From sequence record SRR20825019_1298: 64,000 nucleotides of DNA. One strand, 5' to 3'. Positions 61,503 to 64,000 of the stretch are shown piece after piece. The notes under the pieces were generated by a model. That model saw only the letters and a program-made list of their open reading frames with translations, did no database searches and had not been told where the DNA came from. Each line of letters starts with the position of its first letter. Within the stretch, counting starts at the first letter, position 1. Both the position numbers and the translations under genes were made by a program.

Positions 61503-63710
61503 CTAAAATGTGGCTTGGAAGGATATTTTCACATTACGCCCCGGAAGCGGCACGAGGTCCTTCAGGAAGCTCGTATGCTGGCGTGCGTCGACGTTGCCCA
61601 GGTTGCTGCCCCTTACCTCAAACGACAAGTTCTTGTTGTCGAAAGGCCGAACCGTCAGGTAGGCGTTCCAAAGCATATAGTCCTCTGTTGGTAACTCATT
61701 TGCTGTGACTCGTTTTTGCTTGGCTGAATATTCCAGCTCGGTACGCAGATCAAAAAGCTCTGCTCGCGCCTCAACCCCAAACAAAGCCGACATTGGCGGA
61801 ATACGCGGCAAGTTATCATTGCCCGCAATATTCTTAAGTTCCGCACGAACCAGATCGGCTTGAGCATCCAGATGCAAGTCTATTTCGCCGAACGCAGATG
61901 TCTTGTACGTACCCGCATGCAACTCAGCTTTGGCTTCGAAACCATAAAGAGCCACATCGCTGACCCTGAAGGCAAACACGGGCAGCTCATCTTCTTCATC
62001 GCCCGTAGCCACCTCATAGATAAAGTCATCATACGAGGTGTAAAAGCCGTTCAGTACAAAGCTAAATGGACCTGTCGCATAGTTGAAGGTGGCCTCTAAC
62101 CCCAAGGCCGTTTCCAGGCCCAGAGTTGCATCGCCAAGCTCGTAGGCGCCCGTGGCAAGGTGGGGACCATTTGAAAACAGCTCTTCAGTTGAAGGCGCAC
62201 GCTCAGTCCTGAACAGTGACAGCCCGACAAAAGCAGCGTCAGAGATATCATATCCAGCGCCCGCCGACAGGCTGATGCCATCAAAGGATCGCCCATCCTG
62301 CTCTGATGTTACATCCTCGATAGTATATTTGGTGTGTTCATACCGTGCACCCGCCTCAAACTGCCACGCGCCCGCTGAGAAGTCTTTCACGCTATACAGG
62401 CCGTATTGTGTACTCACTGTCGGAGGAACAAACGCTTCTTCGCCAATCGCAGAAAAATCACGACGTTTGATTTGAATGCCTGTTGCCCCGTTCCAGCGTT
62501 CACCACCTTTCTCAATCAAATCCAAACGGCCTTCCCAACCTTCGTTGGAAAACACGGTACCAATTTCATCGCCTTCAAGCTCTGTGTGTTTATAATCGGC
62601 ATATCCAAATCGAATTTTCGCCTTCTTGAACCAGCCGAAGTCACCATTGAACTCTCCATGCAGGTCATAGCGGATCTGGTCAAGGTCGATGGTCACGGCC
62701 TCGTCGTCATGCTCGTCCTCGTGATCGTCGTGGTCTTCATCTTCGTCATGTTCTTCATCATGATGGTGTTCATGGCCACCGGGCACGCCGTAGGTGCTAT
62801 CCATCTTGCGAACATTGAAACCAAAAAAACCATTGTCGAAAATGAAGCTCAATCCCGCAGAGCCGCCCTTGCTCTCTGTTGCAGAATTTTCGGCAATACC
62901 GAAGACTTCCTCATCCTCGTGTTCTTCATGATCGTCATGGTCATCGTGTTCTTCATCTTCCTCGTGCTCATCGTGCTCTTCTTCCTCTAAAGCCCGAAAA
63001 GCCTCGGATTCTGCGAACCCAGGTATTTTGTAATCGTCGGTTTTGCGGTACATCGCATCACCGTGGAAAACGATATTTGCATCTCCAACACTGCCAATAT
63101 TCGCTGTAATGGCGCCCGTCACCTCATTGCCGTGGTTTACCGTGCTGTGCCCATAACGCACACCGCCATCTACACCGCCTTCCGGTACTGCAGTAGCGAT
63201 CCGGCCGTCAAACACGTTTACCACCCCGCCAGCGGCAGAGCTGCCATACATCAGCATGGCTGTGCCGCGAAGTATTTCGATCCGTTCCGCAAGCGCAGGT
63301 TCAACCGCTACAGCGTGGTCCGGGCTAGTTGACGAGGCATCTATTGATCCAATGCCTGCATCAAGCACCCGAATTCGGTCTCCACCCAGCCCCCTGATAA
63401 TTGGACGGCTGGCGCCGGGACCAAAAAAAGTTGACGACATACCGGGTTGGCGACGTAAAGTTTCGCCAATCGAACCGTCGAGCTGGCGAAGGATTTCCTC
63501 TTTGCGCATGACCGTCGCACCCAGGATCGTTTCTCCGAGCTTTCGCCCCTCAAACGCACCTGAAACTACGATCTCTTCAAGCTGTTCATCAAGTGGTGGC
63601 GCCAAAGCCAGCGTCCCTGTTGTCGGGACAGTGGCGAATGTCACCGCAACTGTTGCAAGCAGGCGTTTCTTGTTGTTGCGATATATTGATTTGATTATTT
63701 TACTGGACAT
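61503..63710 (-). CDS. TonB-dependent receptor, ZnuD-like, with His/Asp/Glu-rich loops
   Basis: FGPGASRPIIRGLGGDR, SPDHAV, YGVPGGH, DYKHTE, LFSNGPHLAT, ARQHTSFLKD, C-terminal Phe. Confidence 0.9.
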   Translation of the reverse strand: MSSKIIKSIYRNNKKRLLATVAVTFATVPTTGTLALAPPLDEQLEEIVVSGAFEGRKLGETILGATVMRKEEILRQLDGSIGETLRRQPGMSSTFFGPGASRPIIRGLGGDRIRVLDAGIGSIDASSTSPDHAVAVEPALAERIEILRGTAMLMYGSSAAGGVVNVFDGRIATAVPEGGVDGGVRYGHSTVNHGNEVTGAITANIGSVGDANIVFHGDAMYRKTDDYKIPGFAESEAFRALEEEEHDEHEEDEEHDDHDDHEEHEDEEVFGIAENSATESKGGSAGLSFIFDNGFFGFNVRKMDSTYGVPGGHEHHHDEEHDEDEDHDDHEDEHDDEAVTIDLDQIRYDLHGEFNGDFGWFKKAKIRFGYADYKHTELEGDEIGTVFSNEGWEGRLDLIEKGGERWNGATGIQIKRRDFSAIGEEAFVPPTVSTQYGLYSVKDFSAGAWQFEAGARYEHTKYTIEDVTSEQDGRSFDGISLSAGAGYDISDAAFVGLSLFRTERAPSTEELFSNGPHLATGAYELGDATLGLETALGLEATFNYATGPFSFVLNGFYTSYDDFIYEVATGDEEDELPVFAFRVSDVALYGFEAKAELHAGTYKTSAFGEIDLHLDAQADLVRAELKNIAGNDNLPRIPPMSALFGVEARAELFDLRTELEYSAKQKRVTANELPTEDYMLWNAYLTVRPFDNKNLSFEVRGSNLGNVDARQHTSFLKDLVPLPGRNVKISFQATF
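62700..62990 (-). repeat. Two low-complexity His/Asp/Glu codon tracts inside the ZnuD-like gene
   Basis: EEEHDEHEEDEEHDDHDDHEEHEDEE and HEHHHDEEHDEDEDHDDHEDEHDDE. Confidence 0.8.
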
Positions 63711-63788
63711 GGTTGTTTCCTGTAACCCTGATTTACGGTGTTGACAGTGAGTCCTCTCACTGGGCCAACAAAACTGAATTTTCGGTAT

Positions 63789-64000
63789 TTAAAGGGGGGT
63801 TACAAAGGATGGCGGCGCGCGGATCGCACCAATGCTGTCAAGAAATATGCGGCTTAGGCTACGAAGCGCTATTACCCATGTCACCTGCTCATTTTCTGGC
63901 AGGATCAGGTTTGTGCTTTGGGGCTTAAGCGTTGGGGTTTGATCAGAAAATTTGCACAATGCACAAACACGGTCATAAGGCGCGTCGACCTCATGATCTG
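63789..64000 (-). CDS. DUF2946/CruR-like upstream ORF with CxxC and RAPP motifs, 3' part (start is outside the window)
   Basis: Manual translation from 63998: DHEVDAPYDRVCALCKFSDQTPTLKPQSTNLILPENEQVTWVIALRSLSRIFLDSIGAIRAPPSFVTPL*. Not in the ORF track. Confidence 0.8.
   Translation of the reverse strand, partial: DHEVDAPYDRVCALCKFSDQTPTLKPQSTNLILPENEQVTWVIALRSLSRIFLDSIGAIRAPPSFVTPL

Follow-up and report, generated by a model that had tools for sequence, protein, structure and literature searches.

Two leader genes ahead of a ZnuD-like receptor

The stretch of DNA analysed here (the window; 64,000 nucleotides (nt) of sequence record SRR20825019_1298) corresponds to G000:C1:161808-225807 of a complete 4.18-Mb genome (G000) of a marine Kordiimonas. 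Near its end, a gene for a TonB-dependent receptor (61503..63710) is preceded by a short upstream open reading frame (uORF), uORF-A, whose stop codon (TAA, 63791-63789) lies 78 nt ahead of the receptor ATG at 63710. A preliminary description of the window, made from its letters alone, had pointed out this frame ahead of a His-rich receptor, and direct reading of the frame, the stop and the ATG bore out the arrangement. The leader genes and the receptor gene discussed below are all on the minus strand, and flanking DNA past the window end is numbered on L001.

The 3′ two thirds of uORF-A occupy 63789..64000, and the window ends within the frame. In the flanking DNA the frame stays open to a GTG (L001 2092) and an ATG (L001 2125), which give products of 100 and 111 amino acids (aa), respectively; the in-frame stop or missing start that the preliminary description had considered just upstream of the window was not found there. 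The GTG is the start position common to the relatives, being GTG or TTG in all six orthologues compared. Each of them has a purine-rich stretch ahead of this start (L001:2090-2092; L003-L007), and the G012 orthologue has no ATG at all. The upstream in-frame ATG in G000 is buried in a local hairpin of the minimum free energy (MFE) structure.

uORF-A encodes ...DHEVDAPYDRVCALCKF...IGAIRAPPSFVTPL. Its N-terminus resembles a signal peptide (MRQGSFFQIGIR-LFAVIAYFVVTAAASA|HV), with K/R residues, a hydrophobic run and an ASA|HV site as judged by eye. A candidate metal-binding motif, H..H..CALC, follows. The codon of its invariant His (H33) is at 63995-63993, and the CALC codons were read directly at 63965-63954. 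The predicted ribosome-arrest site, R-A-P-P (codons CGC GCG CCG CCA, 63821-63810), lies 44 residues beyond CALC. Six sense codons (S F V T P L) separate RAPP from the stop, one more than was first described. RAPP and RGPP are arrest motifs (PMC12992588, PMC10951233) and are reported to be the strongest and most avoided arrest tetrapeptides, and uORFs of this kind occur before TonB receptors across Gram-negative bacteria (PMC12992588). In the uORF survey of that study, TonB-dependent receptors were over-represented among the downstream genes (PMC12992588). A 60-nt stretch within uORF-A (window about 63890-63950) is C-rich and G-poor (33% C, 12% G), and the 3′ end of the uORF also contains more C than G.

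A second leader gene, uORF-B (107 aa), lies just past the window end (L001:2208-2531 = G000:C1:226014-226337). Its product has a signal-like N-terminus (AHA|AA site, by eye), the motif HTHDGHPCIIATAC and the C-terminus ARGPPSL-stop. The HxHDGHPCII part of the motif is invariant; the Cys residues form C-x5-C, and 42 residues stand between the second Cys and RGPP. The spacer from uORF-B to uORF-A measures 82 nt to the ATG and 115 nt to the conserved GTG. A promoter-like element, TTGAAA-17-TAAATT, precedes uORF-B, and the 17-nt spacer of this element contains a Zur-box-like sequence, CGTAATATTATAGCG (GTAAT-ATT-ATAGC). Terminator-like sites were absent from the leader spacers in a scan of the locus, and Rfam gave no match at E ≤ 1 on L001 1600-2700. 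As part of the explanation developed below, we think it reasonably probable that leader B, leader A and the receptor gene form one minus-strand transcription unit with its own promoter and operator. A hybrid histidine kinase/receiver gene (...DPLDALLDELG; L001:2630-3499, minus strand) lies directly upstream and is co-directional in G000, G012, G008, G013 and G018 (L003-L006).

The receptor is a protein of 735 aa with plug and barrel domains. It scored 350.4 bits against NF038289 (ZnuD), for which the equivalog cut-off of 950 was not reached, and the next family scored 126 bits. Its best solved relative is ZnuD (4RDR, E = 6.9e-48), followed at a distance by the next at 3e-11. Two loops are rich in His, Asp and Glu, and the second of them is kept in the 13 related receptors that were read. 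By its sequence the protein is best called ZnuD-like, and not ZnuD.

Conservation of the leaders and their zinc-type context

Two leaders of known function serve as reference. CruR (Bp2923) of Bordetella pertussis is a DUF2946 uORF in which 45 residues separate a CXXC motif from RAPP, the latter three residues from the end, and it precedes the receptor gene of BfrG in the operon cruR-bfrG(crtA)-bp2921 with a spacer of 162 nt (PMC9426467). Its stalling at RAPP blocks Rho termination and copper relieves the stall, and CruR homologues are commonly first in receptor operons (PMC9426467). When CruR arrests in vitro, its Pro codons occupy the P and A sites (PMC12992588). CutF of Rhodobacter capsulatus (cutFOG), also a DUF2946 protein, is Sec-exported, and copper prolongs its stall at a Pro-rich end, melting a stem-loop over the cutO Shine-Dalgarno (SD) sequence (PMC9973294; bioRxiv 10.1101/2025.02.05.636593). 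In some CutF-like clusters the motifs are His-only and the neighbours are of the Ni/Co type (PMC9973294).

The preliminary description had likened uORF-A to CruR, and the profile search that it proposed did not place uORF-A within the family threshold: DUF2946 (PF11162) gave 15.9 bits for the 111-aa product and 16.3 bits for the 100-aa product, against a gathering cut-off of 23.7. Five of six uORF-A orthologues matched DUF2946 at E ≤ 1 (best E = 1.4e-4). None of six uORF-B sequences did so, and uORF-B had no Pfam match. The profiles of the two leaders align with each other over 75 columns, from the signal end via H..C..CK to RxPP (hhalign 83.8%, E = 7.9e-6), and they are probably paralogues. 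uORF-A thus appears to be a peripheral relative of DUF2946, to which uORF-B would be joined only through uORF-A.

The uORF-A query found matches in 6 of 41 genomes, all of them Kordiimonas, and in none of 16 genomes from other genera of the order. With the uORF-B alignment as query, matches were found in 15 of 32 Kordiimonas genomes. The order uORF-B, uORF-A, ZnuD-like receptor is kept in seven genomes (G000, G012, G008, G013, G018, G020 and G042). Six others (G001, G007, G023, G010, G014 and G015) have a single B-type leader with the same receptor type, and in G022 a leader with RGPP stands ahead of a different receptor.

Among six aligned uORF-A orthologues, the invariant residues are H29, H33, P38, C43, P65, I90, R91, P93 and P94; those of uORF-B are H46, H48, D49, G50, H51, P52, C53, I54, I55, K60, D66, R102, P104 and P105. 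R[AG]PP was found in every leader read, two to seven residues from the stop (IRAPP plus six residues in uORF-A, ARGPP plus two in uORF-B). The conservation of RAPP that the preliminary description had called for was thus confirmed, the R and both P being invariant in all six aligned uORF-A orthologues and in all B-type leaders. In both alignments the 40 residues ahead of R[AG]PP are poorly conserved. The pattern of invariant motifs with a freely varying body fits a nascent-chain sensor with an arrest motif better than a folded protein. Chance is rejected as the whole explanation, since R[AG]PP is invariant and the synteny is conserved.

The preliminary description had proposed the nascent CxxC as the site of metal binding. 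Two His and the first Cys (C43) are invariant, but the second Cys of the CALC motif is present in five of the six aligned uORF-A orthologues, and that of the uORF-B motif is missing in G020, G042 and the single-leader clade. Because the second Cys varies while the two His and the first Cys do not, CxxC is not a safe sensor assignment. By its putative export signal, its His/Cys motif and R[AG]PP near the stop, uORF-A is a real and conserved leader of the CruR/CutF kind.

The promoter region of the ZnuD-type loci carries a recurrent palindrome. A 5-3-5 palindrome, G[CT]TAT-N3-ATA[AG]C, stands at a fixed spacing behind a TTGA -35 element in 12 of 13 loci with at most two mismatches, and in the 13th it was recognised by eye. 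The operator consensus is GCTAT-AGT-ATAGC, for which the locus studied here has GTAAT-ATT-ATAGC, and the layout matches that of Zur sites tabulated for Caulobacter (PMC4176598). A genome-wide scan with the operator core (at most two mismatches) returned 80 sites, mostly noise; the only perfect one lies inside a gene. G000 has a Zur-like gene of the Fur family (L032:1456-1935 = G000:C1:504873-505352, minus strand), which scored 142 bits against the Zur model (cut-off 167). A GTTATAATATAAC box was also seen 56 nt ahead of a tonB (TonB_C)-exbD pair (L037, about 3112).

In another genome, G011, a His-rich leader (HVHGDPDHHHDHEGHTTEECDFC...PRAPPVLQT-stop; L021, G011:C1:1982262-1985549, minus strand) stands directly ahead of zigA, which codes for a zinc chaperone (599.5 bits, cut-off 600), and this leader-zigA locus lies behind a perfect GTTATTGTATAAC palindrome. 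G000 itself has a separate locus of the copper kind (L057:1359-4481 = G000:C1:2590058-2593180, minus strand), composed of a DUF2946 leader, a receptor and a DUF1775/YcnI protein. Its leader is a Cys-type DUF2946 protein (155-aa frame, HECDC...SRAPPAALQTA-stop, 22.7 bits), and its 685-aa TonB receptor has YncD and a PQQ transporter as best solved relatives. Because the same genome has this separate copper-kind locus, a second copper system is less likely. The receptor, the His-rich motifs, the operator and the zigA leader all point to zinc, which would most likely be the metal sensed.

Distant B-type matches were found in 17 of 400 other alphaproteobacterial genomes, and most of these leaders end in RAPP. 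Distant loci from other alphaproteobacterial families (L039, L040, L042-L045, L047, L049, L051 and L056; H.H.G..C, RAPP near the stop) have a protein of about 450-490 aa behind the leader. These proteins have a signal peptide and, in their N-terminal part, a coiled-coil-like repeat (...EIQAMRQTYESRIAELE...), and no Pfam family matched the four that were scanned. They may form an unnamed family of the outer membrane that is similarly controlled.

Predicted pairing of leader tails with the next start site

The sequence right after the RAPP codons of uORF-A is complementary to the start region of the receptor gene. The anti-SD strand, UCCUUUGUAACCC (63809-63797), lies within the last six codons of the leader, and the SD strand, GGGUUACAGGA (63728-63718), holds the AGGA of the receptor. 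UGUAACCC pairs with GGGUUACA over eight contiguous base pairs (bp), and a UU bulge and UCC/GGA follow. The positions of RAPP and of both strands, and the 8-bp helix with its extension, had been given in the preliminary description and agree with direct reading and with the MFE fold. The hairpin that it had placed between the strands, CAGUGAG-AGGA-CUCACUG, is present in the 78-nt spacer, but at 63762-63745, one base off the position first given; no U tract follows it. In relatives, a hairpin of other sequence occupies this position.

The MFE structure of 63690-63830 includes the helix and has a free energy of -36.3 kcal/mol (z = -2.84; none of 200 shuffles folds as well). The duplex between the 27 nt after the stall site and the receptor start region has -14.9 kcal/mol (p = 0.038, 500 dinucleotide shuffles; p = 0.045 with a wider target). 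The post-RAPP window ranks second among 72 windows of the same frame, and in four of six tandem loci it is the best of about 72. In this single sequence the helix is moderately, not overwhelmingly, unusual, and its weight comes from the relatives.

For this comparison, the 27 nt from the second Pro codon were paired with the next start region (-20..+6) at 22 junctions and set against dinucleotide shuffles. The tail-start duplex was stronger than 95% of the shuffles at 14 of the 22 junctions, and at 13 of 20 when the near-duplicate G042 was left out (about one expected). With a wider target (-30..+6), 11 of 20 junctions passed each test. Complementarity between the sequence directly 3′ of the stall site and the following start region thus exists both here and in most relatives, as the preliminary description had proposed for the receptor.

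The paired sequences themselves vary by lineage. G000 and G012 have GGGUUACA/UGUAACCC, and G008 has GGGAAACA/UGUUUCCU, a swap on both strands. In G013 and G018 the pairing is CAGGAAA/UUUCCUG and includes the stop codon, and in the single-leader clade it is ACACG/CGUGU over a GUG start. The tails of that clade and of the G011 leader are unrelated in sequence. In G011, UCCUACAGA/UCUGUAUGGA pair over the zigA AUG (p = 0.012 for the leader tail against the AUG region; none of 60 shuffles reaches the pair count). Between the two leaders of G000, the uORF-B tail CUCUGAUUA pairs with UAAUCAGAG beside the uORF-A start in the MFE structure. Tail-start pairing thus looks like a recurrent design, with moderate statistical support.

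A putative metal-responsive switch, its alternatives and known systems

Our preferred explanation, which we hold with moderate confidence, is that leaders B and A are exported metal-binding leaders of the CruR/CutF kind that would arrest at R[AG]PP and gate the ZnuD-like receptor by unmasking its start site. From the anatomy, conservation, complementarity and gene families described above, we infer the stall, its link to exposure of the SD, the metal sensed and the direction of the response as follows. A ribosome on a leader would arrest at R-[AG]-P-P, its P and A sites occupied by the two Pro codons. The 10-20 nt right after the stall site would be the strand otherwise paired to the start region of the next cistron, which the stalled ribosome would set free. 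A ribosome in this position would cover about 12-15 nt downstream. Here the predicted footprint takes in UCC UUU GUA, and with it the AGGA partner and one half of the 8-bp stem, so that only UAACCC/GGGUUA would remain. Because of this coverage, a long-lived stall should free the receptor SD. The SD would be open only briefly if the ribosome continued to the stop 18 nt on.

Metal, most likely zinc, would bind the His/Cys motif of the nascent chain about 45-60 residues behind the stall and release the arrest. The ribosome would then terminate, the helix would re-form and receptor synthesis would stop. The motifs stand 47-62 residues from the stall, a distance that would suit the tunnel exit or the SecY channel. 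The economical sign for an importer is that of CruR, in which metal releases the stall and synthesis is turned off, and the Zur-type operator in the promoter spacer would add transcriptional control. A relay between the leaders is suggested because the same geometry is found at the B tail and the A start region in most relatives: a stall on B would allow A to be translated, and a stall on A would allow the receptor to be translated. We put forward only tentatively the strict form of this proposal, a zinc-sensing translational relay in which A is translated solely during arrest on B and the receptor solely during arrest on A, and we regard it as rather doubtful. If it were true, the relay would give a two-step (AND-type, steep) response to envelope zinc loss on top of Zur repression, and with these leaders, ribosome arrest in response to zinc and a natural series of two arrest peptides would each have their first example.

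Several results weigh against this explanation. In G000 the B-to-A pairing is no better than in shuffles (p = 0.52, and 0.31 with the wider target), and G020 and G042 are without a tail-SD helix ahead of the receptor. Pyrimidine-rich tails pair easily with purine-rich start regions: at least five tail-start pairs in the MFE structure are expected at 13.4 of 22 junctions even with shuffled tails, against 19 of 22 observed, and the pair count beats 95% of the shuffles at only 6 of 22 junctions. The MFE pair count is thus a poor statistic. The preliminary description had proposed folding with and without a ribosome footprint, and this predicted little opening of the receptor SD. With the footprint imposed, the modelled unpaired probability of the start region rises from 0.39 to 0.49 on average. 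At the receptor start of this window it rises from 0.52 to 0.54, or from 0.34 to 0.41 with upstream RNA included (0.31 under a control footprint). The gains are small because in silico the start region finds other partners.

For the helix, whose covariation in relatives had been named as a further check, complementarity was recovered at 13 of 20 junctions. RNAalifold gave no consensus on the junctions of the six tandem loci, because MAFFT misaligned the short tails. On five junctions of the single-leader clade, RNAalifold showed an outer helix that never varies, which therefore carries no covariation. The compensatory evidence is essentially the one swap. The zinc assignment is also circumstantial. 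It is weakened by the score of the receptor far below the ZnuD equivalog cut-off, and the His/Asp/Glu loops could serve Ni, Co or Cu too. The G000 genome had no ZnuA (PF01297) match and no clear ZigA, cobW/COG0523 giving only three matches of 20.7-22.5 bits (cut-off 20.7). Finally, the one leader ahead of a TonB receptor that has been studied, CruR, is described as working through Rho and not through SD masking.

This last point leads to an alternative that we consider unlikely but the most serious of those weighed here, namely that the stalled ribosome keeps Rho off the RNA and that release of the stall leads to Rho-dependent termination ahead of the receptor gene. Rho coupling is the demonstrated mechanism of the only studied DUF2946 leader ahead of a TonB receptor (PMC9426467), the C-rich, G-poor stretch in uORF-A (about 63890-63950) is a possible Rho loading site, and the spacers have no recognisable intrinsic terminator. 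However, the spacer here measures 78 nt and is mostly folded, compared with 162 nt in cruR-bfrG, and a Rho mechanism gives no role to the recurrent complementarity between tail and start region. Both mechanisms could also coexist.

The polarity could moreover be that of CutF, with metal, or a chelate that reached the periplasm, prolonging the stall, so that the receptor would be made only in the presence of its substrate and under Zur de-repression. CutF, a DUF2946 protein with a Sec signal and an SD-masking stem-loop, does stall in response to copper (PMC9973294; bioRxiv 10.1101/2025.02.05.636593), and both leaders here have export signals by eye and motifs at 47-62 residues from the stall, a distance compatible with SecY exit. 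We judge this polarity improbable, because repression of an importer by its own metal is the expected logic and is shown by CruR, although the sequence does not decide the sign. Still less probable, in our view, is that the leaders are functional periplasmic metal-binding proteins, such as chaperones or accessory factors of the receptor, with an RNA pairing that is incidental or serves mRNA stability. Their export signals and conserved His/Cys motifs would suit such proteins, and the shuffled-tail control shows that pairing is easily obtained. Yet R[AG]PP, which is among the most avoided bacterial tetrapeptides and is enriched at the C-termini of small exported uORF products (PMC12992588), is invariant two to seven residues from the stop behind a poorly conserved body, and CruR and CutF are reported not to be detectable as stable proteins (PMC9426467, PMC9973294).

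Several known systems come close to start-site unmasking by arrest of the two leaders, which we continue to prefer. uORF-A resembles CruR in being a small exported uORF before a TonB receptor, in the Cys motif followed by RAPP near the stop, in the motif-to-RAPP spacing (44 residues here, 45 in CruR) and in an importer that is expected to be off with its metal. It differs in the putative coupling, since CruR acts through Rho termination over its 162-nt spacer, whereas here 78 nt contain a predicted tail-SD helix. The receptor under CruR is a copper transporter of the CrtA type with PepSY_TM after it (PMC12914433), whereas here a ZnuD-like receptor with His-rich loops has no PepSY_TM gene behind it. 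The invariant residues here are two His and one Cys, the leaders are two in series, and the Pfam score is below threshold.

The likeness to CutF lies in the Sec-type leader, the metal motif, the Pro-rich C-terminal stall motif and the SD-shielding stem-loop that is thought to be melted by the stalled ribosome. The CutF-type arrangement, an SD-sequestering stem with one strand just after the stall motif, is found here in the predicted MFE helix of 63809-63797 with 63728-63718. CutF differs in having CxxxC, a PPP-type end and a single leader, and in switching on a detoxifying oxidase with copper, a polarity opposite to that expected for an importer. ApdA and ApdP resemble the present leaders as small exported uORF products with RAPP or RGPP at the C-terminus, but they monitor Sec/YidC function, not metal. 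In SecM-secA of Escherichia coli, too, C-terminal arrest of an exported leader opens an SD-masking helix (in part from PMC9973294), and force on the nascent chain releases the arrest. SecM differs in its RAGP with a longer upstream arrest sequence and in sensing secretion capacity, not metal. The preliminary description had proposed SecM-like SD unmasking. The complementarity supports the anatomy of that idea, but its logic is already in print for CutF (PMC9973294), and with CruR and CutF published (PMC9426467, PMC9973294) neither the kind of leader nor the unmasking mechanism is new.

The words tandem, Shine-Dalgarno and zinc do not occur in the main text of PMC12992588. More broadly, a search of the main texts of the key papers on CruR, CutF and RAPP found neither zinc nor leaders in tandem nor SD pairing ahead of a receptor; the supplements of these papers (sequence similarity network (SSN) cluster lists, Table S1, File S1) may list the family. 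A literature search returned no paper joining CruR, zinc and translation arrest, none joining ZnuD with RAPP and none on serial leaders. As leaders of this kind have already been described, the practical value of the locus is modest.

Arrest peptides that sense metal form a recent class. Its two studied members both respond to copper, through different couplings, and with a branch linked to zinc the principle would reach a second metal. The locus offers compact natural test cases for the effect of a ligand on RAPP arrest, whether release or prolongation, and for what serial leaders add. Its less usual traits are the two serial leaders, the zinc-type context and the pairing of tail and start site before the receptor. 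Compared with the published systems, what would be new, as far as the sequences tell, is the combination of serial leaders, a His-based motif, a ZnuD-type receptor, a Zur-box-like operator and a sister leader before zigA.

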